The position numbers were made by a program, and so were the translations under genes. A stretch of DNA of 64,000 nucleotides from an uncultured Chloroflexia bacterium. GTDB taxonomy: Bacteria > Chloroflexota > Limnocylindria > Limnocylindrales > CSP1-4. This document shows positions 27,039 to 42,236 of this stretch, piece after piece. The notes below the pieces were generated by a model that ran no database searches, was not told where the DNA came from, and saw only the letters and a list, made by a program, of their open reading frames with translations. How positions within the stretch are numbered: position 1 is the stretch's first letter; the number at the start of each line of letters is the position of its first letter. The stretch covers positions 928,001 through 992,000 of the forward strand of contig CAWEZH010000002.1 in the NCBI GenBank assembly GCA_963813535.1, read 5' to 3'.

Positions 27039-28805
27039 ATCGCTACTCCAGCCGCTGCTATCGCCTCGTCCGCAGCCACCAATGTCGGCATCGCGGAAGG
27101 CACCGCCACCATCAAGGCGGCCGCCGCCATCGCGCTTGAGATGCAGGCTCTCGGAGTCGAGCATTTCTTCTTGATGACCGGTCGCGACAATGGCCTCTGG
27201 ATCGCCCTCGAGGAGGTGGGGATCCGCCAGGTGCTCGCCCGGAGCGAGGCTGCCGCGGTCTATATGGCCGATGGCTACGCCCGCCTCCGCGGCACGCCGA
27301 CCTTCGTGTACGGACCGTACGGCCCGGGCGCCGCCAACGTCGCCGGCGGTCTGGCCGAGCCGTTCTGGGCCGGTAGTCCCGTGGTCGCCCTGGTATCGGC
27401 CATGCGCCGATCCGATCGGTACCGCAGGGAGTACCAGGAGCTCGAGCAGCAGCCGCTGTTCGCATCGGTCACCAAGTGGGGCATCGAGGCGTCCGTCGTG
27501 AACCACGTGCCGCGCCTCGTGCGCGAGGCGGCACGGCACGCGATCGCCGGCGCCCCGGGTCCCGTGTATATCGGCATCCCGAACGACCTCTTCGAGGAGG
27601 ACCTTCCGGGATACAACGGCCCCGCGCCGCTCGACCACGTCTTCGAGGTGCCGTTCGCGCGCCCCGCACCGACCGCAGCCGACGCTGAAGCCGTCGTGCG
27701 TGCGCTCACCACTGCTGAGCGCCCGATCATCCTCGCGGGTGGCGGCATCCACCAGTCCTCGGCCTACGACGCCCTCCGGCAGGTCGCCGAGCGCCTTGGG
27801 ATCCCGGTCGCGACCAGCAACTCGGGCAAGGGCAGCATCGCCGAGACCCACGACCTCGCCCTCGGCAGCGTCGGACGCTACTCGCGCAACTATGCGAACG
27901 CCGCATTGCGCGACGCCGACGTCATCCTGGCGGTCGGGACCGCGCTCGGTGGCATGGTCACCGACTCATACCGACTGATCAGCAAGGGCACGCGGATCAT
28001 CCACGTGTCGATCGATCCCGATGTCATCGGGATGAACTTCCCGACCGAGCTCGGCTTGGTCGCCGACGCCAGGACGTTCCTCGAGGCCGTCTATGACGCG
28101 TGCGTCCGTCTCGAGGCACTCCCGTCGACGGCCGCGATGGAGTCCTCGCGGAACCTTGCCTCCGAGCGCGCCGAGTGGCGCGAGCGGCGGGCGGGTCTGG
28201 CGGCCCAGAACGGCCTCGACGGTGGTCCGATGCGACCCGAGGCGATCATGGCCATGCTCGATGCCCGCCTCGCGGACGATGCGGTCCTCGTCGCGGACAC
28301 CGGCTACTCGTCGGCCTGGGCAGGCGCCCTGGCCGAGGTGAAGCAGGCAGGCCGCCACTTCATGCGGGCCGATGGGTCACTCGGCTGGGCATTCCCGGCC
28401 GCCCTGGGCGCGCAGCTCGCGGCACCGGACCGGCAGGTCGTCTGCATCACCGGTGACGGTGGCTTCGGCTATCACATCGGCGATATCGAGACCGCCATCC
28501 GCCAGCAGCTTCCGGTCATCGTGGTGATCCTCAACAACCAGACGCTGGCGTTCGAGGAGCACGTGCAGGAGCTGCTGTACGGCAAGGTCGTCCCGTCGGT
28601 CAACGAGTTCGTGGACGTCAACTACGGCGCCATCGCCCGGGCATTCGGGGCGAGCGGGTTCCGGGTGGCGAACGTGGAGGACTTCGAGCAGGCGCTCATC
28701 CATGGCCTCAAGCGCAACGGCCCGACGATCATCGACGCAGTCATCGACCGCGACGCGATCGCACCGGTCACCCGCTACGACCGCGTCCGAATCCGCGAAC
28801 TATGA
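27039..28805 (+). CDS. Thiamine pyrophosphate-dependent enzyme (acetolactate synthase-like); start uncertain
   Basis: Motifs RSEAAAVYMADGYAR, GPGAAN and GDGGF...NN (TPP motif). The conserved first helix lies upstream of the first ATG (27141). Confidence 0.88.
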   Translation: MATPAAAIASSAATNVGIAEGTATIKAAAAIALEMQALGVEHFFLMTGRDNGLWIALEEVGIRQVLARSEAAAVYMADGYARLRGTPTFVYGPYGPGAANVAGGLAEPFWAGSPVVALVSAMRRSDRYRREYQELEQQPLFASVTKWGIEASVVNHVPRLVREAARHAIAGAPGPVYIGIPNDLFEEDLPGYNGPAPLDHVFEVPFARPAPTAADAEAVVRALTTAERPIILAGGGIHQSSAYDALRQVAERLGIPVATSNSGKGSIAETHDLALGSVGRYSRNYANAALRDADVILAVGTALGGMVTDSYRLISKGTRIIHVSIDPDVIGMNFPTELGLVADARTFLEAVYDACVRLEALPSTAAMESSRNLASERAEWRERRAGLAAQNGLDGGPMRPEAIMAMLDARLADDAVLVADTGYSSAWAGALAEVKQAGRHFMRADGSLGWAFPAALGAQLAAPDRQVVCITGDGGFGYHIGDIETAIRQQLPVIVVILNNQTLAFEEHVQELLYGKVVPSVNEFVDVNYGAIARAFGASGFRVANVEDFEQALIHGLKRNGPTIIDAVIDRDAIAPVTRYDRVRIREL

Positions 28806-29821
28806 CCACCACTGCCGCGCGGATCGACGGCCCCGGCCTGCCGGAGGCCGATCCGGCGCTACCTGACATCGACACGGTCCGGGAACTCGCCCAGCGCTAC
28901 TCCAATTGGGGGCGCTGGGGGCCCGACGATGAGCTCGGGACGCTGAACCTCATCAGCCCGAGCGACGTCGTCGCGGCCTCCGGCCTGGTCCGTTCCGGTC
29001 GCACGTTCTCGCTGGCCATCCCGGTCGACGAGAACGGGCCGCAGTCGGGCGGGTTCGGGCGTTTCAATCCGATCCATCTGATGATCCGCGACGGGAACGC
29101 GGCCGCGACCGGGACCGTCGTCCGTGACTTCTACGGCGGCCGGGACCGCTACATCCGCGGCACGGACGACCTGCTGATCCTGCCGCTCCAGTCCGGGACG
29201 CAATGGGACGCGCTGGCACACATCGTGTTCGACGGCCGCATCTACAACGGCTACGACGCGACGGATGTCGGCAGCAAGGGTGCGATCCGCAACGACATCG
29301 CCAAGATGCGCGACCGCGTCATCGGGCGGGGCGTGCTCCTCGATATCCCGCGCAGCAAGGGCCGGCCGTGGCTCGATCCCGGTGAACCGATCCATGCAGC
29401 CGACCTCGATGCCTGCGCTCGAGCGCAAGGGGTCGAGATCGGGCGCGGGGACATCGTGCTCATCCGGACCGGACAGATGGCCCAGTGCCGCGCCGAGGGC
29501 GCGTGGGGTGCCTATGCCGGCGGCGCTGCCCCCGGGCTGGCGCTCGACACCGTCGGCTGGATCCACGACCGCGACATCGCGGCCATCGCGAGCGATACGT
29601 GGGGCGCCGAGGTCCTGCCGAACGAGACCCTCGACGTCTTCCAACCGCTCCACATCATCCTCATCGTGCACATGGGTCTGCTCGTCGGCGAGATCTTCGA
29701 TCTCGAGGGGCTCGCGACCGATTGCGCCGAGGACGGGCGGTACGAGTTCCTCTTCTCGGCACCGCCCCTGCCGATCACCGGCGGGGTGGGCTCGCCCGTG
29801 AACCCGCTCGCCATCAAGTAA
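28802..29821 (+). CDS. Cyclase-family (kynurenine formamidase-like) hydrolase
   Basis: Motifs NWGRWGPDDELGTLN, QSGTQWDALAH, GRGVLLD and GSPVNPLAIK. Confidence 0.9.
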   Translation: MTTTAARIDGPGLPEADPALPDIDTVRELAQRYSNWGRWGPDDELGTLNLISPSDVVAASGLVRSGRTFSLAIPVDENGPQSGGFGRFNPIHLMIRDGNAAATGTVVRDFYGGRDRYIRGTDDLLILPLQSGTQWDALAHIVFDGRIYNGYDATDVGSKGAIRNDIAKMRDRVIGRGVLLDIPRSKGRPWLDPGEPIHAADLDACARAQGVEIGRGDIVLIRTGQMAQCRAEGAWGAYAGGAAPGLALDTVGWIHDRDIAAIASDTWGAEVLPNETLDVFQPLHIILIVHMGLLVGEIFDLEGLATDCAEDGRYEFLFSAPPLPITGGVGSPVNPLAIK

Positions 29822-29828
29822 GGCCGTG

Positions 29829-31079
29829 ATGACCGCCCCCCGGACCCAGGAACCCGTACTCATCTTCGGGCCGCACATCGCGGCACTCGGCGTGCTGCGC
29901 GTGCTCGCTCGCCGTCGCATCCCGACGTTCGTCGTGGATGACACGACGAACGTGATCACGCGGTCGCGCTGGTATCGGCCCGCCGAGCGGACCCTGGCGG
30001 AAACGTCCGACCCGGCGACGCTGGCGGCCTACCTTCGATCGTTGGACCTGCCCGGTGCGGTCCTCATCGCCTGCAGCGACCAGTGGGCGCTCGCGGTCGC
30101 GGGCCTCCCGGAGGACCTCCGACAGCGGTTCCCGACGAGCCTCGCACCACACGCCGCCATCGAGCAGTTCGTCGACAAGGACCGGTTCCAGGCCCTGGTC
30201 GATCGGCTGGACATCCCTCGGCCGCGCACCATGCCGATCCACCATCCGGGGGATCTGGCGCACGCGACCGACGAGGACCTCGCCAACGGTTTCCTGAAGC
30301 CGACCGAGTCGCAGGCGCACAACCGCCGGTTCAAGACGAAGGGCTTCTTCGTCGAGTCGCGCGAGGAGGCTCGCCGCCTCGTCGACGAGGCTGCCGAGGC
30401 CGGCGTCACCTTCATGCTCCAGGAGTACATCCCAGGCGACTCGTCGAAGACGTTCCTCATCGACGGGTTCGTCGACCGCGACGGGACCATCAGCGCGATG
30501 GTGGCGCGGCGACGAGTGCGGATGGATCCGCCACGGCTTGCCAACACCTGCTCGGACGTCACGATCCCGCTCGCGGACGTCGAGGCGTGCCTGCCGTCGC
30601 TGCGGACCTTGCTCGAGGCGACCGATTACCGCGGCATCTTCAACGTCGAGTTCAAGCTCGACGAGCGCGATGGCCGGTTCAAGATCATCGAGCTCAACCC
30701 GCGGCCGTTCTGGCTGATCGGCCACATCGAGCGGGCCGGCGTCGACCTCCCGTGGCTGAGCTACCTCGACGCCCAGGGACTGCCGGTCCCGACGCCGCCG
30801 TCCTACCAGGTCGGGCGCTACGGGATGTACGAGATCCCCGACGCGACGGCCATCGGCCGGGCCATCGTCTCGCGCCGCCGACCGGAAGGTCCGATCCTCA
30901 AGCCCTGGCTGCGGGGCGACAAGGCGCTGTTCTGGTTCCGCGATCCGCTGCCTGCCGTCGAGGGGCTCGGCCAGATCGCCGGGAAGCGGCTCGGCCACGT
31001 CGTCGACCGGTTCCGGCGGGGCGCTGTGTCCGTGCCGGACACCACCGATCCCACGAACCACGCGGTGTCGGCTCGCTGA
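29829..31079 (+). CDS. ATP-grasp carboxylate-amine ligase (D-aspartate ligase-like)
   Basis: Motifs FVDKDRF, LKP, LQEYIPG and NVEFKLDERDGRFKIIELNPR. Confidence 0.85.
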   Translation: MTAPRTQEPVLIFGPHIAALGVLRVLARRRIPTFVVDDTTNVITRSRWYRPAERTLAETSDPATLAAYLRSLDLPGAVLIACSDQWALAVAGLPEDLRQRFPTSLAPHAAIEQFVDKDRFQALVDRLDIPRPRTMPIHHPGDLAHATDEDLANGFLKPTESQAHNRRFKTKGFFVESREEARRLVDEAAEAGVTFMLQEYIPGDSSKTFLIDGFVDRDGTISAMVARRRVRMDPPRLANTCSDVTIPLADVEACLPSLRTLLEATDYRGIFNVEFKLDERDGRFKIIELNPRPFWLIGHIERAGVDLPWLSYLDAQGLPVPTPPSYQVGRYGMYEIPDATAIGRAIVSRRRPEGPILKPWLRGDKALFWFRDPLPAVEGLGQIAGKRLGHVVDRFRRGAVSVPDTTDPTNHAVSAR

Positions 31080-31162: not shown

Positions 31163-31259
31163 CGCCCGACCGGCCCCCAGGCGCGCCTGACCGGCACAGT
31201 CGCGGAAACCCGTCCGGCCTGTCCCCCGGACGCCCCTAGCGCCAGGAGTGCTACCGAAC

Positions 31260-33701
31260 GTGCCCGCCGTCGACGTCAGGCTCGTGGACGTGGTCAAGCG
31301 ATACGGGGATGCCCTCGCGGTCGACCACATCAACCTCGAGGTCCAGACCGGGGAGTTCTTCACGCTCCTCGGCCCGTCCGGTTGTGGCAAGACCACGACC
31401 CTTCGGATGATCGGCGGCTTCGAGGAGCCGACCTCCGGTCTCATCGAGCTCAAGGGCGAGGACGTGACGTGGCTGCCGCCCTACAAGCGACACGTCAACA
31501 CGGTCTTCCAGAACTACGCGCTCTTCCCCCACCTATCGGTCTTCGAGAACGTCGCGTTCGGCCTTCGGCGCCAGAAGGTCAGCGACTCCGAGGTGCGCAA
31601 CCGGGTCGGCGAGATGCTCCAGCTCGTCGAGCTGCCCGGCTTCGAGCGCCGCAAGCCCACCCAGATCTCCGGTGGCCAGGCCCAGCGCGTGGCTCTCGCC
31701 CGCGCGCTGATCAACAGGCCCTCGGTCCTGCTCCTCGACGAGCCGCTGGGCGCGCTCGACCTGAAGCTGCGCAAGCAGATGCAGGTCGAACTGAAGCGCA
31801 TCCAGCAGGAGGTCGGCATCACGTTCATCTTCGTGACGCACGACCAGGAAGAGGCGATGACGATGTCCGATCGCATCGCCGTCATGAACAAGGGCCGCTA
31901 CGAACAGCTGGCCGACCCGGCCAGCCTGTACGAGCGGCCGCGGACGAGGTTCGTCGCCGGCTTCCTTGGCGTGAGCAACCTCCTCGCATCGACGCCGAGC
32001 GGCACGGCCGACGGCTACGCGGTCGGCCAACTCGCGGACGGCACGAGCGTCCGTGTTCCGGCCGCGCTCACCGAGGGCCTCGATCACTATGAGGTCGGCG
32101 TCCGGCCCGAGAAGATCCGGCTGCGCGAGCTGACCGATGAGGTGCCGGCCGGCCTGAATCAGCTCGAGGGCGTCATCAGTGACGCGTCCTATCTCGGCGT
32201 CTCGACCAGCTACCAGGTCACGACGCGTGGCGGGGCCAAGATCACGGTCTATGAGCAGAACGTCGAGCGGGCGACGCGGGCCGAGCTGTGGGAGCCGGGC
32301 GAAGAGGTCCGCATGACCTGGTCGCCGGACCACAGCTTCGCCGTCGAGTCCGGCGGCACGCCTCCACCGGACGTCGTCACCGCGACCAGCGTCGCGAGCG
32401 AGGGCAGCCCCGCGCCATTGCCGACAGGTCCCTCGCGGCGGGCGTTCCTCGTTGGCGGTGCCTTGGTCGCGGTCGGCGGTGTCGCGGCATTCCTGGCCGC
32501 GACCAACGCGGGCACGCCGGCCGGGTCGGCCGCCCCGAGCGGACCGCCATCCCAGGCCGCGGGTGGGTCGGCCGGTGCCTCGGCGGTGCCGGGGTCGGCG
32601 GCGCCGCCGCAGGTGGCCACCGGTCCGCTCAACTTCGCCAACTGGGACGCCTACATCGATCTGACCACGGTCCCCGGCCCGGACGGAGAGCTCGATACCG
32701 ACGACGACGAGTACGACCTGCCCTCGCCGACGCTCGACGAGTTCGCAGCCCAGTACGGGGTCGAGGTCAACTACGCCAACGCCGAGATCGACGGGAACGA
32801 GTCGTTCATGGCCACCATCACCCCGCAGCTCGAGGCTGGAGTGCCGACCGGCTGGGACCTCATCGTGATCACCGACTTCATGGCCGCCAAGGTGATCGCG
32901 GCCGGTTGGGCCGAGCCGCTCGACCCGGCCGTGACCGCCACGGCCGCGGCCAACGTGCGGGACGAGCTTCGCGACCTGCCGTGGGATCCCGATTTCACCT
33001 ACCACTACCCGTGGCAGTCGGGCGCCACAGGTGTCGGCTACAACTCCGAATCCACCGGGCGCGAGCTGACCAAGCTCGCCGACTTGTTCGATCCGGCGTT
33101 CGCCGGCAAGGTAACGCTCCTCGACGACCCCCACGACACGTTCCCGCTCATCCACACGATGCTCCAGGCACAGGGCCAAGCGTCGGACACGCCGTCGGAG
33201 GCGATGACGGTGGACGACGCGCAGGTCGTCCACGACTACCTGCGGCCGTTCGTCGACAACGGCCACATCCGGGCATTCCGCGGCAACGCGTACCTGCAGG
33301 ACTTCGGCAGCGGTGACACGTGGGTGGCGATGGTCTGGTCGGGCGACCTCGCCTCGTCGGCGGGACCCAACGACGTGTTCGTCTACCCGGAGGAGGGCTC
33401 GAACCTCTTCACCGACAACATGGTCATCCCGAAGGGGGCGGTCAACAAGTACACCGCCGAGCTGATGATCGATTGGGTCTACGACGTGGACCGTGCGGCC
33501 CGGATCGCCAACTTCGTGTACTACATCTCGCCGGTCAAGGGTGTGGCCGACGCGATCAAGGCGCTCGACGAGGAGGTGGCGACCAACCCGCTCCTGTTCC
33601 CGCCGCCCGACGTCCTCGAGAAGCAGCATCCCCAGCCGGAGTGGGACGAGGCCACCGAAGCAGCGGTCAACGGCATGTACGCGGACCTCGCGGGCGTGTG
33701 A
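31260..33701 (+). CDS. Fused PotA-like ABC ATPase + TM/twin-arginine segment + PotD-like solute-binding protein
   Basis: N-terminal GPSGCGKT, ISGGQ, LLLDEP, H-loop and TOBE-like tail. Then SRRAFL with a hydrophobic helix. Then LNFANWDAYID, YPWQSGATG and DNMVIPKGA. There is no internal stop. Confidence 0.9.
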   Translation: MPAVDVRLVDVVKRYGDALAVDHINLEVQTGEFFTLLGPSGCGKTTTLRMIGGFEEPTSGLIELKGEDVTWLPPYKRHVNTVFQNYALFPHLSVFENVAFGLRRQKVSDSEVRNRVGEMLQLVELPGFERRKPTQISGGQAQRVALARALINRPSVLLLDEPLGALDLKLRKQMQVELKRIQQEVGITFIFVTHDQEEAMTMSDRIAVMNKGRYEQLADPASLYERPRTRFVAGFLGVSNLLASTPSGTADGYAVGQLADGTSVRVPAALTEGLDHYEVGVRPEKIRLRELTDEVPAGLNQLEGVISDASYLGVSTSYQVTTRGGAKITVYEQNVERATRAELWEPGEEVRMTWSPDHSFAVESGGTPPPDVVTATSVASEGSPAPLPTGPSRRAFLVGGALVAVGGVAAFLAATNAGTPAGSAAPSGPPSQAAGGSAGASAVPGSAAPPQVATGPLNFANWDAYIDLTTVPGPDGELDTDDDEYDLPSPTLDEFAAQYGVEVNYANAEIDGNESFMATITPQLEAGVPTGWDLIVITDFMAAKVIAAGWAEPLDPAVTATAAANVRDELRDLPWDPDFTYHYPWQSGATGVGYNSESTGRELTKLADLFDPAFAGKVTLLDDPHDTFPLIHTMLQAQGQASDTPSEAMTVDDAQVVHDYLRPFVDNGHIRAFRGNAYLQDFGSGDTWVAMVWSGDLASSAGPNDVFVYPEEGSNLFTDNMVIPKGAVNKYTAELMIDWVYDVDRAARIANFVYYISPVKGVADAIKALDEEVATNPLLFPPPDVLEKQHPQPEWDEATEAAVNGMYADLAGV

Positions 33702-33705
33702 GACC

Positions 33706-34746
33706 GTGACCCGGCGTCGCTGGCTCATCCCGTACCTGCTGCTCATCCCGGGGCTGCTGTGGCTGGCGCTCTTCTTCGTCCTCCCCAACATCCAGATGTT
33801 CCTCATGTCGCTCTCGGAGCGCGCCGGCGGGGCCGGACTGGCGCGCCAGTACGAGCTCACGTGGACGTTGGACAACTACGTCACCGCGCTGACCGCCTTC
33901 CCCGAGCAGTTCGCCAACTCGCTCGTGTACGGCGGACTGGCGACCCTGCTGTGCCTGCTGATCGGCTATCCGCTGGCCTACGGGATCGCGTTCCGCGGTG
34001 GCCGCTACAAGAACCTGCTGCTGTTCTTGGTGATCGCGCCGTTCTTCACGAGCTTCCTGATCCGCACGATCTCGTGGCGGATCCTCCTCGGCAACGACGG
34101 CGCCTTCCTGTCGATCATCCGCGATGGTCTGGGCATCGTCCCGCCGAACTTCAGCATCCTGGGGACGCCACTGGCGGTCGTCTCGGGGCTGACCTATCAG
34201 TTCCTGCCGTTCATGGTCCTGCCGCTGTATGTCTCGCTCGAGAAGATCGACCGGCGCCTGATCGAGGCCGCCAAGGACCTCTACGCCGGGCCATGGCGCC
34301 CGCGGGGCACCGTCGTGGGCGCGCTCAGTGGAGCGGGACTCGCCGTCCTCATCGTGGCGGCCCTGGGATACGTGCAGCTCAGCGCCGGGAGCCTGCCCGG
34401 CATCGTGGCGGTGGCACTCGTCGGTGGCGGGATCGGCGCGGTCATCGGGACCTACCTGATCTCGGAGTCGTACGTGCGGATCATCCTGCCGCTCAGCCTC
34501 GGCGGTGTGTTCGCGGGTTCCATCCTCACGTTCATCCCCGCGATCGGTGACTACGTGAACGTCGAGCTGCTGGGCAACCCGCAGACGCAGATGATCGGCA
34601 ACGTCATCCAGAACCGCTACCTGGCGCAGAACGACTACCCGACGGCCGCGGCGCTGTCGTTCCTCCTCATGGCGGGCATCCTCATCGCGATCTTCATCTA
34701 CGCCCGGGCACTCGGGACCGAGGAGCTGACCGGAGGCCGCGGATGA
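33706..34746 (+). CDS. PotB-like ABC permease with inserted TM hairpin
   Basis: Motifs PFFTSFLIR, LPFMVLPLY and EAAKDLYA, then a ~56-aa hydrophobic insertion before RIILPLS. Confidence 0.88.
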   Translation: MTRRRWLIPYLLLIPGLLWLALFFVLPNIQMFLMSLSERAGGAGLARQYELTWTLDNYVTALTAFPEQFANSLVYGGLATLLCLLIGYPLAYGIAFRGGRYKNLLLFLVIAPFFTSFLIRTISWRILLGNDGAFLSIIRDGLGIVPPNFSILGTPLAVVSGLTYQFLPFMVLPLYVSLEKIDRRLIEAAKDLYAGPWRPRGTVVGALSGAGLAVLIVAALGYVQLSAGSLPGIVAVALVGGGIGAVIGTYLISESYVRIILPLSLGGVFAGSILTFIPAIGDYVNVELLGNPQTQMIGNVIQNRYLAQNDYPTAAALSFLLMAGILIAIFIYARALGTEELTGGRG

Positions 34747-35699
34747 CCGACGCGACGCTCACCCAGGGCCAGGAGGTCGCCGTCGCGCGCTCGGTCGGCA
34801 CCGGCCAGCGCGTGCAGAAGGCCGTCGATCGCTGGCTGATCCCGATCTTCGTCTTCCTCGCGCTGTTCTACCTGATGCTGCCCATCCTGGTGATGATCGC
34901 GTTCTCGTTCAACGATCCACCGGGCCGGTTCAACTTCGTCTGGGGTTCCTTCTCGCTGGCGGCCTGGCAGAACCCCTTCGGGCGCCCAGGCCTCGAAGCG
35001 GCGCTGATCACCAGCCTGGTCGTCGCGACCCTCGCGACGATCGTCGCCACGATCCTCGGCACGCTCATCGCGCTCGCCCTGTCGCGCTACAACTTCACCG
35101 GGCGCTCGAGCACGAGCCTGTTCATCTTCATCCCGATGGCGACGCCCGAGATCGTCCTCGGCGCGAGCCTGCTGACGCTGTTCGTCGGGTCGGCCAACGA
35201 GCCGTGGAAGACGCTCACCGGCGGGGTGCTCTTCCCGCTCGGCGTCCAGACGATCCTCATCGCCCACATCATGTTCAACATCAGCTTCGTGGTGGTGACC
35301 GTGCGGGCCAGGATGCAGGGGTTCCCCCACCACCTCGAGGAGGCGGCGATGGACCTCGGCGCCACACCGTGGACCACGTTCTGGAAGGTGACCTTCCCGC
35401 TCATCCTGCCCGGCATCCTGGCCGGCGCATTGCTGGCGTTCTCCCTCTCGATCGACGACTTCATCATCACCAACTTCACGTCGGGCACGTCCTCCACGTT
35501 CCCGATCTGGGTGTGGGCAAGCATCAGGAACAACCTGCCTCCACAGGTCCACGTCATCGGGACGATGGTCTTCGTCGGCGCGGTCGGCCTGGTCGCGCTC
35601 AGCACGTTGTGGGAGCGGCGGAATGAACGGCGGGATCGGATGATCGCCGCGCAGGAAGCCGCCAAGGCGAGTACGGCGGCGGCGGCCGCCCAGGCCTGA
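34743..35699 (+). CDS. PotC-like ABC permease
   Basis: Motifs EEAAMDLGA and FSLSIDDF. Confidence 0.92.
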   Translation: MTDATLTQGQEVAVARSVGTGQRVQKAVDRWLIPIFVFLALFYLMLPILVMIAFSFNDPPGRFNFVWGSFSLAAWQNPFGRPGLEAALITSLVVATLATIVATILGTLIALALSRYNFTGRSSTSLFIFIPMATPEIVLGASLLTLFVGSANEPWKTLTGGVLFPLGVQTILIAHIMFNISFVVVTVRARMQGFPHHLEEAAMDLGATPWTTFWKVTFPLILPGILAGALLAFSLSIDDFIITNFTSGTSSTFPIWVWASIRNNLPPQVHVIGTMVFVGAVGLVALSTLWERRNERRDRMIAAQEAAKASTAAAAAQA

Positions 35700-35717: not shown

Positions 35718-37046
35718 ATGATCGACACGCGGGCCGACACGTCCGGCGGAGCAGCGGACAGCCTCCCGGATCACGCCGTGATCCCGCCCGTCTGGGGCCG
35801 TATCACGAACCTCGACGTGGATCGTGGCGAGGGCTCATGGCTCATCACCCGCGACGGCGAGCGCTACCTGGACTACAGCTCGGGGATCGGCGTCACCAAC
35901 ACCGGGCATGCCCACCCGCGGGTGGCCGCAGCGATCGCGACGCAGGCCCAGAAGCTCCTCCACGGCCAGCAGAACATCCTGTACCACGAGCCGGGCCTGC
36001 GGCTGTACGACCGGCTCCCGAACCTCCTCCCCGGCGGCCCGTTCCAGGCGTTCCTGTCGAATTCGGGCGCCGAGGCCATCGAGGCGTCCGTCAAGTTGGC
36101 GCGGGTGTCGACCGGTCGCCCGGTCATCCTGGCGTTCCGCTACGGCTACCACGGCCGGACGGCCCAGACCATGGCGCTCACGACCGCGAAGGACGTGTAC
36201 CGCGGCGCCTTCGAGCCGCTGCCCGGGAGCGTCTACCACACCGCCTATCCGTACTGCTATCGCGCGGCCACCGGCCCGCACGACCCGTCGGCCTGCACGT
36301 GCGGCTGGGAGGAGCAGCTCGAGCTGACCTTCCACCAGATCATCTACCCGGACCAGGTCGCGGCGATCATCATCGAGCCGGTGCTCGGCGAAGGCGGCTA
36401 CATCGTCCCGCCGCCGGACTTCCTGCCGCGGCTCCGGGAGATCACCCGCCGCCACGGCATCATGCTGATCGCCGACGAGGTCCAGACCGGGTTCGGGCGG
36501 ACCGGCCAGATGTTCGCCGTCATGCACTACGACGTGGAGCCCGACATCCTGGTCATGGCCAAGGGCATCGCCTCGGGTCTGCCGCTGTCGGGGATCCTCG
36601 CCCGCCAGGAGCTGATGGCGCGCTGGAAGCCCGGCAGTCACGGTGGCACGTACGGCGGCAACGTCGTGTCGTGCGCGGCGGCGAACGCGACGCTCGACGT
36701 CATCGAGGACGAAGGCCTCGTGGCCAATGCCGCCGAGCGCGGCACCCAGTTCCTGACCGGGCTCCGGGCGCTGAAGGCGAAGTACCGCGCCATCGGCGAT
36801 GCGCGCGGACTGGGCCTGATGGTCGCCATCGAGCTCGTCAAGCCCGACGAGGGCGACGGGCGCGTGCCGGACCCGGACCTGACCAAGCGGATCCAGGCCG
36901 AAGCCCTCGCGCGCAAGCTCATCGTGCTCACTGCGGGGACGTATGTGAACGTGATCCGCATCATCCCGCCGCTCGTAACCACGGCGGATGAGGTCGATCA
37001 GGCGTTGTCGATCCTGGACGAGTCGCTGGCAGCCGCTGGCGCCTGA
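35718..37046 (+). CDS. Class III PLP aminotransferase (4-aminobutyrate/omega-amine type)
   Basis: Motifs NSGAEA, YHGRT, EPVLGEGG, DEVQTGFGRTG, MAKG and GGTYGGN. Confidence 0.92.
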   Translation: MIDTRADTSGGAADSLPDHAVIPPVWGRITNLDVDRGEGSWLITRDGERYLDYSSGIGVTNTGHAHPRVAAAIATQAQKLLHGQQNILYHEPGLRLYDRLPNLLPGGPFQAFLSNSGAEAIEASVKLARVSTGRPVILAFRYGYHGRTAQTMALTTAKDVYRGAFEPLPGSVYHTAYPYCYRAATGPHDPSACTCGWEEQLELTFHQIIYPDQVAAIIIEPVLGEGGYIVPPPDFLPRLREITRRHGIMLIADEVQTGFGRTGQMFAVMHYDVEPDILVMAKGIASGLPLSGILARQELMARWKPGSHGGTYGGNVVSCAAANATLDVIEDEGLVANAAERGTQFLTGLRALKAKYRAIGDARGLGLMVAIELVKPDEGDGRVPDPDLTKRIQAEALARKLIVLTAGTYVNVIRIIPPLVTTADEVDQALSILDESLAAAGA

Positions 37047-37060
37047 CAGGTCGCGCTGAC

Positions 37061-37744
37061 GTGGAGCTCGCGTCGGCCGGCCTGCTCGTCGTCGTCGGGC
37101 TGATCCTGGTCAAGGAAGCCGGCCTGCCGGTCCCCGTCCCGGGTGACCTGATCGTCATCGGTGCCGGGGTTGCCGCCTCCCGCGGCGACGTTGATCCGGT
37201 CACCACGCTCGTCCTGATCGTGCTCGCGAGCATCGTCGGCGGGGTGGTCCAGTACGCCCTCGTCCGGTCGATCGCTCGGCCGGCCCTGCTCCGGTTGCTC
37301 CAGCGGGTCACGTCGGCGGAGAGCCTCGACCGGCAGACGGAACGCCTTCGCCGCGGCGGCGCCCGCTCCGTGGCGGTCGCCCGATCGACGCCCGGGATCC
37401 GCATCGTCGCCATCGCCGCCAGCGCGCTCGCGGCCATCCCGCCGGTCGCCTTCGTCGCCGGCTTGGCGCTCGGCAACGCGCTGTTCATCGCTGCCCACTT
37501 CGGGCTGGGCTACGTGCTCGGTGAGCCCTTGCTGGCCGTCGTCGGCGGCGTGCTCGGCCCGCTGGCAGTGGCCGGCATCGTCCTCGCCGTGCTGGGTGGG
37601 CTCGGCTGGTTGGTCCTGGCTCGACGTCGTGGACGCGCGATGTCCGGGGCGGCCGATGTGACGGATCTCGCCACGATCGGGGCCTGGGCCGACGCCTGTT
37701 GCCCGGGGTGCTTGTCGCTCGCGGCCCTGGAGGCCAGCCGCTAG
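37061..37744 (+). CDS. DedA/VTT family membrane protein
   Basis: Motifs EAGLPVPVPGD and RSTPGIR, with TM helices. Confidence 0.85.
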   Translation: MELASAGLLVVVGLILVKEAGLPVPVPGDLIVIGAGVAASRGDVDPVTTLVLIVLASIVGGVVQYALVRSIARPALLRLLQRVTSAESLDRQTERLRRGGARSVAVARSTPGIRIVAIAASALAAIPPVAFVAGLALGNALFIAAHFGLGYVLGEPLLAVVGGVLGPLAVAGIVLAVLGGLGWLVLARRRGRAMSGAADVTDLATIGAWADACCPGCLSLAALEASR

Positions 37745-38580
37745 CCCTCCCGGAGGCGACGAAGGACGGCGTCGTGCAGCCGGCCGTTCGAGGCGACGAT
37801 CGTGCCCGTTTCGATGTCGCGACGACCGTCGAAGTCCGTGACACGACCCCCAGCCTCCTCGATCAGCACGGTCGGCGCGGCTGCGTCCCACGATTTCAGC
37901 CCGACCTCGACCATCGCCTCTCCCGCACCCTCGGCGATCAGCGCGTAGCCCCAGAAATCGCCGTACCCGCGGTCACGCCAGACGTCGCGCAACAGCCCGT
38001 CGAAACCGGGCGCCAGACCCGTCTCCTGGATATCGCGCGCCGAGCCGTACAGGACCTGCGCGTCCTCGAGCCGGCCGACCGCCGACACGCGGATCCGGCG
38101 CGGCTCCGTGCCCCGGTTGCGCGCCCACGCGCCGCCGCCGCGGTACGCCCACCAGCGCTCGTCGAGCGCTGCCGCAGACAGGACTGCGGCCTGCAGCTCA
38201 CCGTCCCGTTCCACCGCGAGGAGCGTCCCGAACAGGGGCACGCCGCGGACGAAGTTGTGGGTGGCATCGATGGGGTCGATGTACCAACGGACCGGCGCAT
38301 CGCCGGCCTCGATCCCGTATTCCTCGCCGACGAGCCCATGGTCCGGGAACGCGTCGGCCAGACGCTCGCGTATCCGCCGCTCGATCGCCGTGTCGACCTG
38401 CGTCACGAGCGTGTTGTCGGGCTTGGTGTCGATCGTCAGGTCACGCCGGAACGATGCCCGGGCGAGGGCGTCCGCCTCGTCGCAGGCCGCAAGCGCCTCG
38501 TCGAGCCAGCCCTTGAGCTCATCCTCGGTCCCGCGCCGCAGGGACGCGGACCACGCCGCACCGTAGTCGCCATCGTTCAC
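37741..38580 (-). CDS. Inositol monophosphatase family / histidinol-phosphatase (HisN-like)
   Basis: Motifs GEE, WYIDPIDAT, RGYGDFW and WDAAA. GTGA overlap with the upstream gene. Confidence 0.87.
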   Translation of the reverse strand: MNDGDYGAAWSASLRRGTEDELKGWLDEALAACDEADALARASFRRDLTIDTKPDNTLVTQVDTAIERRIRERLADAFPDHGLVGEEYGIEAGDAPVRWYIDPIDATHNFVRGVPLFGTLLAVERDGELQAAVLSAAALDERWWAYRGGGAWARNRGTEPRRIRVSAVGRLEDAQVLYGSARDIQETGLAPGFDGLLRDVWRDRGYGDFWGYALIAEGAGEAMVEVGLKSWDAAAPTVLIEEAGGRVTDFDGRRDIETGTIVASNGRLHDAVLRRLREG

Positions 38581-41030
38581 GATCGGATCGTAGCGTTGGT
38601 CGGGTCGTAGAGCGGCTCGCGCACGACCGTGAAACCGATCCAACGGCCGAACACCTCGACGTCGCCGCGAGTGCCGACGCCGCGGTCGGGCGGCAGGTAC
38701 GCATAGGCGATCGAGTTCTCGACCGCGAAGCCCTGGCCGCCGCTGGTCACCCGACCGACCACCTCGCCGTCGATGCGCACCGGCTCATTGCCCAGGCAGA
38801 CGTCGAGTGCGTCGTCGAGGACGAGACAGCGCAGTCGCTTGGACGGTCCGTCGGCCGTCGCGGCGCGCAGGGCGGCGGCCGCCTGCGACGGCTCGGCCTT
38901 GTCGAGCGCGACCGCGAAGCCGAGCCCGGCCTCGAACGGGTTCTCGTCGGGCGTGATGTCGGTCGACCAGACCCGATAGCCCTTCTCGAGCCGGAGCGCG
39001 TCGATCGCCCGATAGCCACCGGCGACCATGCCGTGCGGTCGGCCCGCCTCCCACAGGGTCGCCCACAGCGCACGCCCGTACTCCATCGGTGCGTAGAGCT
39101 CCCAGCCAAGCTCGCCGACGTACGTCACCCGCAACGCGAGGAGCGGGACCGAACCGACGCTGATCTCGCGCGCGGTGAGGAACGGGAAGCCGGCATCGGA
39201 CACGTCGTCGCGCGTGAGTTGCGCCAGGATGTCGCGTGCCCGCGGTCCCCACAGCCCGAAGCACACGCGCGCCGACGTGATGTCGCGGATGGTCACCGAG
39301 CCGTCGACCGGGAGGTTGGACCGGAGCCACGCGGCATCGTGGTTGCCGTAGGCCGTCCCGGTGATCAGCATGAAACGGTCCGCGGCGAGGCGGGTCACGG
39401 TCACATCGGCCTGGATACCGCCACGCCGATCGAGCAGCTGCGTGTACACGATCGATCCGACCACACGGTCGACGTCGTTCCCACACACCCGCTGGAGGAA
39501 CGAGCAGGCTCCCGGCCCGACGATCTCGAGCTTCGCGAACGACGTCTCGTCGAACAGCGCGGCCGCCTGGCGCGTGGCGAGCGCCTCCGCGGCGATCGCG
39601 GGCGACCAGTGCTGACCGGCCCAGCCCCGCGGGCGAAGCACCTCGAGCGACTCCCGGCCGCCGAACCGTGGATCGTCCGCGTTCGGCTCGAACCAGTTCG
39701 GCCGCTCCCAGCCGGACTTCTCCCCGAACACCGCCCCGAGCGCGGCGAGATCCTCGTAGGTCGGCGAGGTCCGCAGGGGCCGCCCGGCCTGCCGCTCCTC
39801 GCTCGGGTAGTGGATGTCGTAGTAGGTCGCGTAATTCTCGACCGAGCGGGCGAGCGTGTACGACTGCGACCGATAGGCCGCCCCGAACCGGCGGATGTCC
39901 ATCTTCCACAGGTCGAGCTCGGGTTCGCCGTCCACGATCCAGCTCGCCACCTGGCGACCGATGCCACCCGCCCCGGCGATCCCGTGCGCGCAGAACCCGG
40001 CGGCGAGCCAGAACCCGCGCACGGCCGACTCGCCCAGGATGAACTCGTTGTCCGGGGTGAATGCCTCAGGCCCATTGATGATCCGGCTGACACGCGCGTC
40101 GGCCATCGCCGGGACCCGACGGATGGCGCCCTCCATGATCGGCTCGAAGCGCGGCAGGTCGGGTGCGAGCAGCTTGCCGTTGAAGTCCGGCGGGACGCCA
40201 TCGAGCGACCACGGCGCAGGCTCCCGCTCGTAGCCGCCCATGCACAGCCCGCCGACCTCCTCGCGGAAGTAGACGAGGTTGTCCGGATCGCGGAGCTGGG
40301 GCAGCCCGGGCACCACGCCGTCGATCGCTTCGGTGAACAGGTACTGGTGCGCCATCGGGATGATCGGCACGGTGACGTCGACCAGGTCGCCGATCTCCGG
40401 CGCGAAGATGCCACCGGCGTTGACCACGATGTCGGTCGCGATGACCTGCCGCTCGCCGTCGTGTTCGACGGTCACCCCGGACACGCGACCGCGCTCGACG
40501 CCGATGGCGACGACCCGTCGCCCGGTCCGGATCGACACGCCGCGCCGCCTGGCGCCGGCCGCCAGCGCCTGCGCCAGGCCGGATGGGTCGAGCCACCCGT
40601 CGGTCGGCAGCCACACGGCCCCGAGCACGCCCTCGGTCGACATGAGCGGGAAGCGGTCCTGGGCCGCCTGGGCGTCGATCAGGTCCATCGGCAACCCGAA
40701 GGTCTTCGCCCAGCCCGCCTGCCGCTCGAGCTCCTCCATCCGCTCCTTCGACGATGCGAGCCGGATCGAACCCACCTCGTGCCACGACGGGTCGACCCCG
40801 GTCTCGTCGCGCAACCTTCGGTACAGGTCTGAGCCGTACATCATCATCTTCGTCAGCGTCACCGAGCCCCGGAGCTGCCCGACGAGGCCTGCGCTGTGGA
40901 AGGTCGAGCCGCTCGTGAGGTCGGCGCGTTCCAGGAGGACGATGTCGGTCCAGCCACGCTCGGCGAGGTGGTACGCGACCGACGTACCACCGACGCCACC
41001 GCCGATGATCACGACACGGGCGTGGTCCAT
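38577..41030 (-). CDS. FAD-dependent oxidoreductase with GcvT domain (dimethylglycine/sarcosine dehydrogenase-like N-demethylase)
   Basis: Motifs IIGGGVGG, GSTFHSAG, GPEAFTPD, YVGELGWELY and LRLEKGY. Confidence 0.93.
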   Translation of the reverse strand: MDHARVVIIGGGVGGTSVAYHLAERGWTDIVLLERADLTSGSTFHSAGLVGQLRGSVTLTKMMMYGSDLYRRLRDETGVDPSWHEVGSIRLASSKERMEELERQAGWAKTFGLPMDLIDAQAAQDRFPLMSTEGVLGAVWLPTDGWLDPSGLAQALAAGARRRGVSIRTGRRVVAIGVERGRVSGVTVEHDGERQVIATDIVVNAGGIFAPEIGDLVDVTVPIIPMAHQYLFTEAIDGVVPGLPQLRDPDNLVYFREEVGGLCMGGYEREPAPWSLDGVPPDFNGKLLAPDLPRFEPIMEGAIRRVPAMADARVSRIINGPEAFTPDNEFILGESAVRGFWLAAGFCAHGIAGAGGIGRQVASWIVDGEPELDLWKMDIRRFGAAYRSQSYTLARSVENYATYYDIHYPSEERQAGRPLRTSPTYEDLAALGAVFGEKSGWERPNWFEPNADDPRFGGRESLEVLRPRGWAGQHWSPAIAAEALATRQAAALFDETSFAKLEIVGPGACSFLQRVCGNDVDRVVGSIVYTQLLDRRGGIQADVTVTRLAADRFMLITGTAYGNHDAAWLRSNLPVDGSVTIRDITSARVCFGLWGPRARDILAQLTRDDVSDAGFPFLTAREISVGSVPLLALRVTYVGELGWELYAPMEYGRALWATLWEAGRPHGMVAGGYRAIDALRLEKGYRVWSTDITPDENPFEAGLGFAVALDKAEPSQAAAALRAATADGPSKRLRCLVLDDALDVCLGNEPVRIDGEVVGRVTSGGQGFAVENSIAYAYLPPDRGVGTRGDVEVFGRWIGFTVVREPLYDPTNATIRS

Positions 41031-41134
41031 CGCCGAAGCGTAGCCGCGACTCAGCACGCCCGTGACCCGGCGCCACGCACCGCGACGGGGTGCGCCCCAC
41101 CCTGGATCCGGGCGTTCGAGTAGGCTGCCCGCGC

Positions 41135-42236
41135 ATGTCCGAGACCCCGCCGCCCACGACGCCGCAGCCTCCTTCGGAGCCACATCCGGCGGGTCCGGGC
41201 GGCCCGAGTCGCGCGACCGGGCAGATCGTGGTCCTCGCGGTCGTGGTCGTCGGCGTGATCGTCCTGCTGGCGGCGCTGGCGGGCGTCATCCGCGGGGGTC
41301 CCGCCGGTGCCAGCGCGACGCCCAGCGACATCACCGCTGCGACACCGTTGCCGGCGCCGACCGGCACGGCCAGTCCGACGGCCGGGCCATCGTCGGCCAC
41401 GCCGTCCGTGCCCTCAACGAGCCAGAGCGCCTCCCCGGGCCAGGCCGCGGTCCTGGTCGGCGCCGGTGACATCGGCGACTGCGACACCCGTGAGGACTCG
41501 ATGACGGCCGCGCTCCTGGACGACATCGAGGGGACCGTCTTCACGGCCGGTGACAACGCCTACGAGAACGGGACGGCAAAGCAGTTCTCGACCTGCTACG
41601 ACGACACGTGGGGCCGTCACAAGGCGCGCACTCGGCCGGTGCCCGGCAATCATGATTGGCGCACGGCCCACCTGGCGGGCTACTTCGGCTACTTCGGTGA
41701 CGTTGCCCGCGGACCGGATGGGGGCTCCTGGTACTCCTTCGACCTGGGTTCGTGGCACGTGATCATGCTCGACTCCGAATGCGCCAAGAACGGAGGCTGC
41801 GAGGCGGATTTGGCGCAGGGACGCTGGCTCGCATCCGACCTCGCGACGTCCGGTGGTCGCTGCTCGGTCGCGATCTGGCACATCCCCCGATTTCAGCTCG
41901 GGTGAACACGGCAACAACCGATCGGTCGCGCCGTTCTGGTCCCTGCTGTACGACGCCGGTGTCGACGTCGTCGTCAACGGTCACGACCACGACTACGAGC
42001 GCTTCGCGCCCCAGGACCCGGATGGCGCCGAGGACCGCGACCGCGGGATGCGCGAGTTCGTGGTCGGCACAGGTGGCACGCCGCTCCGGGCATTCAACGA
42101 TCCGGTCGCCAACAGCGAGCTCCGCGCGGTCACCCACGGCGTCTTCAAGTTGACGCTGCGTGACGGCTCGTACGACTGGGAGTTCATCCCGGTGAGCGGG
42201 GACTTCCGCGACACGGGAACGGCGTTCTGCCACTGA
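41135..42236 (+). pseudogene. Membrane-anchored metallophosphoesterase interrupted by a +1 frameshift (or sequencing error)
   Basis: GAGDI, GDNAY and PGNHD lie in frame 1. FSSGEHG, NGHDHDYERF and VVGTGG lie in the shifted frame. Junction near 41885-41893 (CCCCCGATTTC). Confidence 0.8.

Follow-up and report, generated by a model that had tools for sequence, protein, structure and literature searches.

In textbook ATP-binding cassette (ABC) importers, the binding protein is joined, if at all, to the permease. The polyamine importer PotABCD of E. coli (8y5f/8y5h/8zx1; PotD 1poy) consists of four separate proteins encoded in the order A-B-C-D, of which PotD is free in the periplasm. Here we analyze a similar locus in a 64,000-nucleotide stretch of a Limnocylindrales assembly (GCA_963813535.1, contig CAWEZH010000002.1, positions 928,001 to 992,000), referred to below as the window, whose own coordinates are used throughout; all features described lie on its forward strand. 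In contrast to PotABCD, the order at this locus is A-D-B-C, and A and D form one chain with a predicted membrane helix. A single gene (31260..33701; recognized as an open reading frame (ORF), by Pfam and as a 100%-identical database cluster, P0002) encodes a nucleotide-binding domain (NBD) with TOBE domain, a linker, a twin-arginine (RR) signal anchor, a second linker and a solute-binding protein (SBP). As in PotABCD, the NBD and TOBE domain match PotA (E 1.5e-91, 44% identity, template modelling score (TM-score) 0.87-0.90), the SBP resembles PotD/PotF, and two PotB/PotC-like permeases follow. Comparison of sequences makes it very probable that the product is an uncleaved bitopic subunit of a polyamine-type (PotABCD-like) importer, with the NBD and SBP on either side of one transmembrane (TM) helix.

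Covalently tethered binding domains, two or more per transporter, are known from OpuA, GlnPQ and the Mycoplasma PotC-PotD type (NF043073; PMC11065425, PMC8025302). In these tethered systems the partner of the binding domain is a transmembrane domain, whereas here it is the cytoplasmic ATPase, and a dedicated extra helix is needed. Cyanobacterial NrtC/CmpC do combine an ABC ATPase and an SBP-fold domain in a single chain (PMC10945777), but that chain has no membrane segment, its additional domain is regulatory and cytoplasmic, and the exported SBP is a separate protein. The term 'NBD-SBD' in PMC8144104 was considered as a precedent for the fusion and rejected because it denotes gene order.

The nearest described membrane topology is that of FecR. 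A 2026 review presents FecR as the example of 'class V' substrates of twin-arginine translocation (Tat), in which an internal uncleaved signal stands behind a folded cytoplasmic domain (PMC13673990), and experiments have shown its dependence on Arg-79/80 and tatABC (PMC12036975). The fused protein would share with FecR a folded cytoplasmic N-domain, an internal RR signal retained as an uncleaved anchor and a folded C-domain outside (PMC13673990, PMC12036975). Unlike the fused protein, FecR is an anti-sigma regulator, unrelated in sequence, and its Tat dependence has been demonstrated where ours is inferred; the cytoplasmic domain of the fused protein is also far larger (~370 amino acids (aa)). 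An earlier examination of the window from its letters, the sequence-only reading, had pointed to actinobacterial Rieske proteins as the precedent. These and other dual Sec-Tat polytopic proteins (Tooke et al. 2017, PMC5449189) likewise have an internal RR before a last helix of low hydrophobicity and a globular domain outside, but they possess earlier Sec-inserted helices and cofactor domains, and the fused protein has neither. FecR therefore replaces them as the closer parallel.

A full-text search of literature readable without a subscription found no published description of an NBD-TM-SBP chain. We rate the architecture as a variant of the ABC importers with tethered substrate-binding domains (SBDs) that is apparently undescribed. 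Public annotation names the protein only as a 'polyamine ABC transporter ATP-binding protein', so the receptor has been overlooked.

The fused gene and its homologues

The frame is open and stop-free from 31248 to 33701 (817 aa). There are two in-frame GTG starts, at 31248 and 31260, and a Shine-Dalgarno-like AGGAG read from the sequence (31244..31248) overlaps the former and precedes the latter by 11 nt. GTG 31260 is the likelier start, judging from the identical database protein P0002, which has 813 aa and begins there. Residues are numbered throughout from GTG 31248.

Three Pfam domains match above their cut-offs: ABC_tran (aa 26-167, 120 bits), TOBE_2 (aa 283-364, 60.5 bits) and SBP_bac_6 (aa 537-788, 65.5 bits; cut-off 24.6). 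The PotA-type NBD (31323..31982, with aa 26-167 as its ABC_tran core) contains Walker A GPSGCGKTT (aa 42-50), Q88, the signature ISGGQ (140-144), Walker B LLLDEP (161-166, including D164/E165) and H198; across the 90 aligned fused sequences described below, the residues of Walker A, Q-loop, signature, Walker B and H-loop are invariant or nearly so. This domain passes the potA subfamily profile TIGR01187 (382.6 bits, cut-off 355.6) and does not reach the PotA equivalog NF006987 (399.6 against a cut-off of 482), which places its assignment at subfamily level only. Its best PDB matches, both by sequence and by fold, are E. coli PotA 8zx1/8y5f.

The TOBE_2 domain (32094..32339, Pfam), the C-terminal regulatory barrel of the ATPase, leads into a cytoplasmic linker rich in Pro, Ser, Thr and Ala with the clade motif GGxPPPD (aa 367-395; 32346..32432). 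Next comes the twin-arginine motif S-R-R-A-F-L (aa 396-401; 32433..32450, read from the sequence), overlapped by the signal-anchor helix AFLVGGALVAVGGVAAFLAA, which is predicted to span the membrane from its sequence and hydrophobicity sum (aa 399-418; 32442..32501) and lacks a lipobox Cys. SRRAFL is followed by FLVGGALVAVGGVAAFLAA and then TNAG, all free of Cys. An Ala/Gly/Ser/Pro-rich, putatively extracytoplasmic tether of ~40 aa (aa 419-459; 32502..32624) then connects to the PotD/PotF-type solute-binding domain (aa 460-817; 32625..33698). This uninterrupted order from NBD to SBP had been proposed in the sequence-only reading; ORF reading and Pfam confirm it, with SRRAFL exactly at the proposed position. 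The proposed hydrophobic helix is also present, Gly/Ala/Val-rich and 19-20 aa long, and ends without the lipobox Cys.

The solute-binding domain, defined by SBP_bac_6 together with PDB sequence and fold matches, opens with an N-W-x-x-Y motif conserved in the 90-sequence alignment. Its matches to PotD/PotF chains in the PDB range from E 1e-28 to 1e-18, including the putrescine-binding protein VcPotD1 (7xjm, 2.4e-28) and E. coli PotD (1poy/1pot, 2e-24), and its fold matches that of 7xjm with a TM-score of 0.88 on the target. By homology, putrescine or spermidine is the putative ligand. No single PDB chain contained both halves in a fold search. AlphaFold2, supplied with the 90-sequence alignment, returned confident models for aa 1-374 and 453-817, with a predicted local distance difference test (pLDDT) value below 50 for aa 375-452, including both linkers.

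To this chain a word-indexed search of 5.8 billion proteins listed its best 120 matches, and all homologue counts that follow are among the matches listed. Of the 120, 98 are 700 aa or longer, and in 93 of these 98 an RR pair and a Cys-free hydrophobic stretch separate TOBE from the SBP. The remaining five comprise three singletons (P0049, P0063 and P0074), the garbled P0052 and the differently arranged P0098. In the three singletons, the ATPase reads directly into a lipoprotein-type signal (RR...LAAC); they may contain sequencing errors or represent fusions at an early stage, before remodelling of the signal. We excluded P0002, the window's twin, as well as P0018 and P0044, which are longer at the N-terminus, and aligned the other 90 of the 93. 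All 90 sequences keep R397 and R398, and the catalytic motifs of the NBD and many positions of the SBP are likewise invariant, while the residue following RR varies (A/K/R/N/T/S) and Lys is found nearby. These are the ABC_tran+TOBE+SBP proteins with a conserved RR for which the sequence-only reading had proposed a search.

Within a sample of the genus, 11 of 35 genomes are open across the junction (G000, G003, G005, G010, G015, G017, G019, G020, G232, G278 and G024). A further observation concerns G024, whose 96%-identical orthologue (L003, G024:C3) is open at the junction and shifts frame near aa 666 inside the binding domain, which could reflect either an assembly error or a recent pseudogene. 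Outside the genus, no uninterrupted full-length match appeared among the listed rows for the 285 genomes of the class sample, six of which gave ATPase-only matches. Public reads cover the junction weakly. The stretches 32273-32407, 32391-553 and 32403-800 are each covered without indels by short contigs from soil metagenomes, and we found no public contig that spans the junction as a whole. The 20 sequencing runs matching the stretch each contained at most 0.48 of its sampled words.

Fused frames of this kind appear to be maintained by selection. The ratio of nonsynonymous to synonymous substitution rates (dN/dS) across the linker and TM segment was 0.14-0.30 in five pairs from one group of fusions (clade A, below) and 0.16-0.48 in six pairs from the other (clade B), exceeding the flanking domains in most pairs and yet well below 1. 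Of 39 fused loci scanned, 36 had a locatable motif, and in these the two Arg are encoded by 11 distinct codon pairs. On this comparative evidence, the NBD-TM-SBP chain is real and under selection. That the fusion is neither an artefact nor a one-off is confirmed mainly by uninterrupted orthologous ORFs in many independent assemblies.

Split relatives and two origins of the fusion

The sequence-only reading held that relatives with a stop and a separate start in the linker would mark the fusion as an artefact or a one-off mutation. Split relatives of this description do exist, but they are ancestral and lie outside two monophyletic fused clades. In 39/39 split relatives with a locatable signal, potA ends in a stop and potD starts at an ATG with a Tat-lipoprotein signal of the form M..[STN]RRxF/L..LAAC, typically [ST]RRRFLQGSALAG.AAFLAAC ([ST]RRxFLQG..AAFLAAC). 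GGAG or GAGG lies within 20 nt of the script-picked ATG in 29 of the 39, and potA and potD overlap as ATGA in several. The exported lipoprotein SBPs of split relatives are 70-75% identical to the fused SBP domain, to which they are orthologous. In split loci potA and potD already adjoin, so the order A-D-B-C is ancestral, and little needs to change at the A/D boundary for the genes to fuse.

The signal itself differs systematically between the two forms. A lipobox ([LVI][ASTVI][GAS]C) occurs in 0/90 fused and 39/39 split sequences. We summed approximate Hessa hydrophobicity values, without position weights, over the best 19-aa window of each signal, so the absolute free energies (dG) are rough. 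The sums were +4.15 +/- 0.93 kcal/mol for split signals (n=39; range +2.3 to +6.4) versus -0.14 for clade A (n=42) and +0.91 for clade B (n=48), with ~+0.09 kcal/mol for the window's protein. Relative to split signals, the fused hydrophobic region (h-region) retains RR, replaces polar Q and S/T with V/I/G/A, extends the run to ~19-20 residues and loses the Cys. The shift in hydrophobicity and the loss of the lipobox therefore indicate that a cleavable signal became a segment just able to span the bilayer. Linker lengths are kept within clades. In clade A the median is 31 aa (range 28-37) for the cytoplasmic linker and 52 aa for the outer one (TM end to NWxxY), and the corresponding medians in clade B are 43 and 35 aa.

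Two groups can be distinguished among the 90 fusions. Members of clade A have 56-100% identity to the window protein and share its GGxPPPD linker motif, whereas those of clade B have 39-43% identity and an acidic linker motif such as GATTTDVDEVQA. In the cytoplasmic linker of clade B (P0085, L140-L170), the conserved acidic motif between TOBE and RR reads GATTTDVDEVQA.L.G or TDF.EVEATM.G.LDADDDV and has no clade-A counterpart. Clade A falls within one genus, probably of Chloroflexota (Limnocylindria), that holds both fused and split forms. Among the loci found with the window protein, its nearest named relatives are metagenome-assembled genomes (MAGs) labelled Chloroflexota / Candidatus Limnocylindria / Limnocylindrales; 79 of the 80 loci listed are split and one runs off a contig end, in a set that may leave out records near the window's genome.

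Clade B belongs to the Acidimicrobiia. The 80 loci listed with P0085 as query comprise 28 that our script called fused, 50 split and 2 off contig ends. Twenty-seven of the 28 have RR and a lipobox-free helix, and most of the 50 have readable RR...LAAC signals. Fused loci derive from Iamia, Iamiaceae, Microthrixaceae, Ilumatobacteraceae, Desertimonas and Acidimicrobiaceae MAGs. The frame is disrupted in L168 and in L152, which the script called fused, and L149 is ambiguous. In the representative protein library, P0125 and P0126 were the only further full-length representatives besides fragments. P0143, a candidate for a third type of fusion with SBP_bac_1, was dismissed as a frameshifted clade-B sequence.

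A FastTree phylogeny of the NBD (125 rows) recovered two fused clades (support 99 and 100) with many split forms between them, requiring a minimum of 2 changes, and an IQ-TREE phylogeny of 48 rows supported clade A at 100 and clade B at 94. An approximately unbiased (AU) test on the same rows rejected a tree uniting all fused sequences (delta lnL 248, p = 2.8e-10), with the fused groups having been named after inspection of the first tree. In the Acidimicrobiia tree, fused rows formed one clade (99) that contained besides only the doubtful L149 and L168. No clean reversion from fused to split was seen in these trees. With the split form ancestral and outside both monophyletic fused clades, the fusion is derived and stably inherited. 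These trees indicate that it arose independently twice, in different phyla, with the same remodelling of the signal.

Comparison of the two forms shows that adjacent potA and potD lost the intervening stop, Shine-Dalgarno sequence and ATG. The Tat-lipoprotein signal peptide of PotD was then remodelled into a signal anchor that kept RR, lengthened its h-region and lost the lipobox Cys. A protein anchor would thereby take the place of the lipid anchor. In the resulting subunit, the PotA-like ATPase and TOBE domain would reside in the cytoplasm, one uncleaved helix would cross the membrane with its N-terminus in and its C-terminus out, and the flexible ~40-aa tether would keep the PotD-like binding domain outside. 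Since ABC importers have two NBDs, each transporter would carry two tethered binding domains.

Insertion route and rival readings

Given this architecture, we mildly favor post-translational insertion by Tat in the manner of the 'class V' substrate FecR. While Tat moved the folded SBP across the membrane, the NBD, also folded, would remain on the cis side. The window protein fits the Tat consensus (S/T-R-R-x-F-L) with a modestly hydrophobic h-region (dG ~0 on this rough scale). Also consistent with Tat are tatC and two tatA/B genes in the genome, the Tat-type ancestral signals, an RR that is invariant over two independent fusions, and a Gly-rich helix of marginal hydrophobicity. Tat-dependent transmembrane domains have low hydrophobicity (PMC5449189). 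The sequence-only reading had envisaged a bitopic NBD-TM-SBP subunit assembled by Tat; the comparison supports a selected subunit of this form, and the evidence is compatible with assembly by Tat.

Several observations weigh against the favored reading, its insertion route included. The h-region gained hydrophobicity on fusion, as expected of a shift to the signal recognition particle (SRP) and the Sec pathway. Lys or Arg within 12 aa past the helix is absent from the window protein but present in 22/42 clade A and 19/48 clade B sequences, so the 'Sec-avoidance' feature is not general. AlphaFold2 yielded no confident helix at aa 399-418 (pLDDT <50), which we regard as uninformative. Furthermore, no RNA runs containing the stretch were listed, most of the sequences derive from metagenome bins, and the rough hydrophobicity scale and the naming of the fused groups after the first tree should be counted here as well.

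The first alternative leaves the bitopic architecture unchanged. The helix would be a type-II signal anchor inserted co-translationally by SRP/SecYEG/YidC, and RR would be an inherited positive-inside determinant. Proteins with a cytoplasmic domain, a TM segment and an external domain, such as PknB-type kinases, are routinely inserted by Sec. Compared with the ancestral Tat signal, the h-region of the fused proteins has grown in length and become much more hydrophobic, which is the direction favoring Sec, and Lys or Arg just past the helix is found in under half (41/90) of fused proteins. Against this route, both Arg are invariant in 90/90 sequences, over two fusions and 11 codon pairs, while the next residue varies and Lys occurs nearby. 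The helix is also still Gly-rich, with dG about 0 to +1, like the Tat-dependent transmembrane domains of PMC5449189. We consider this route plausible, if on balance doubtful.

Cleavage could instead turn the chain into a polyprotein, with signal peptidase I cutting behind the helix after export. The products would be a free binding protein and an ATPase that retains a membrane tail at its C-terminus. Cleavable signals have h-regions shorter than the 19-20 aa found here. Small residues past the helix (AATNAG, ASTSGGG) allow a weak signal peptidase I site and thereby count against an uncleaved anchor, but inspection of the 90 sequences by eye revealed no conserved AxA-type motif. All 39 split relatives anchor their SBP through the lipobox, and a released SBP would therefore forfeit an anchor that the lineage otherwise keeps. 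On these grounds we find a polyprotein improbable.

Less probable still is that the SBP is made separately from a start in the linker, with the read-through fusion as a tolerated by-product. The only in-frame start candidate in the window's linker is a TTG (aa 391) five codons before the Ser of SRR, with GAGG ~14 nt upstream, in agreement with the sequence-only reading that no internal ATG with a Shine-Dalgarno sequence exists and that the TTG is badly placed. A GTG occupies the position five codons before SRR in G024, and a Val or Met codon lies near RR in several relatives. Nonetheless, of nine fused loci scanned for in-frame ATG/GTG/TTG in the linker, two had none and the others had candidates at non-homologous positions without a well-placed GGAGG, such as split relatives have at 5-10 nt. 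A conserved internal start is therefore unlikely. Without a stop, moreover, each ribosome on the ATPase would make the fusion anyway, and the linker is under in-frame purifying selection.

It is very unlikely that the SBP-like domain remains in the cytoplasm as a ligand-sensing regulator of the ATPase. The model for such an arrangement is cyanobacterial NrtC, whose C-terminal domain is ~30% identical to the SBP NrtA and binds nitrate in the cytoplasm (PMC10945777). In the fused protein, by contrast, an RR motif followed by a hydrophobic helix lies between the domains, and the second domain is orthologous (70-75%) to exported lipoprotein SBPs. The locus also lacks a separate SBP gene, whereas NrtABCD has NrtA. 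Lastly, although the assembly is apparently of metagenome type, public contigs fall short of the whole junction and some relatives are frame-disrupted (G024/L003, L152, L168, P0143), an assembly or sequencing artefact or a recent inactivating mutation has a negligible chance of explaining a frame kept in 93 long homologues listed from many assemblies, open in 11/35 genus genomes, with dN/dS <0.5 and two monophyletic clades.

Returning to the favored bitopic subunit, we tentatively suggest, at slightly less than even confidence, a new class of ABC importer in which ATPase and external receptor are one Tat-inserted polypeptide of ~86 kDa that folds on both sides of an internal RR signal. If so, FecR-like 'class V' Tat substrates would include transporter subunits for the first time, and these proteins would be their most widespread examples in the environment. 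Convergence between two phyla suggests a selective advantage, which might be a fixed 2:2 stoichiometry of receptor to motor, or direct mechanical or allosteric communication between receptor and ATPase by way of the anchor helix. The family would offer a natural, twice-evolved case of a cleavable Tat-lipoprotein signal becoming a permanent membrane anchor, as well as an opportunity to study how Tat or Sec copes with an internal signal preceded by a folded domain of 370 aa. Its built-in 1:1 ratio of NBD to SBD may be useful for mechanistic study of tethered binding domains. The lineages that carry the fusion, Limnocylindria-like Chloroflexota and Acidimicrobiia, are abundant in soil and freshwater, where polyamine uptake matters ecologically.

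Genomic context and further leads

Downstream of the fused gene, a PotB-like permease of 346 aa (33706..34746; BPD_transp_1; NF007044 PotB, 3e-55, under the equivalog cut-off) begins 5 nt past the stop. A PotC-like permease of 318 aa (34743..35699; BPD_transp_1; NF007047 PotC, 5e-55, under the equivalog cut-off) overlaps the PotB-like stop by 4 nt. Both permeases are separate ORFs in which Pfam finds BPD_transp_1 only and no SBP domain. They are followed by a class-III aminotransferase of GABA/ornithine type (35718..37046; Pfam Aminotran_3, 5.7e-120; NCBIfam), probably a downstream operon member for amine catabolism.

Pfam detected no further SBP genes between 19.6 and 48.2 kb of the window, and the sole other PotD-like match in the genome has 25% identity and lies next to a different ATPase. 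From this gene content, the fused gene is evidently the only source of an SBP for the transporter system. The genome encodes the Tat machinery: TatC scores 206 bits, and of two TatA/B-type genes (64 and 34 bits) one adjoins tatC. Lgt and LspA are encoded as well.

The wider neighborhood includes a thiamine pyrophosphate enzyme, a cyclase-family protein and an ATP-grasp protein upstream (27141-31079), and, downstream (35718-41183), the class-III aminotransferase, an inositol-monophosphatase-family gene and a DAO/GCV_T oxidase. By gene content, the surroundings of the transporter look like an amine-catabolism neighborhood.

Two ESM Atlas clusters consist entirely of proteins that combine ABC_tran with SBP_bac_1, one with 82 members at 665 aa and the other with 93 members at 624 aa, the latter mostly from Bacillota and auto-named OpuCA. 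They may be further fusions of ATPase and binding protein in other ABC families, and we treat them as unverified leads. Should they hold, the principle may be more general, extending in some cases to Bacillota.

Finally, relative to E. coli PotB and BPD_transp_1, the PotB-like permease contains a hydrophobic insertion of ~45-55 aa (two ~20-aa stretches) at aa ~200-252, right after the EAA motif. Co-evolution of this insertion with the fusion was considered and rejected. It is present in many Limnocylindria-type loci, both fused and split, and absent from the fused L006, from L221 and from all Acidimicrobiia (clade B) loci, and is therefore a feature of the lineage unrelated to the fusion.

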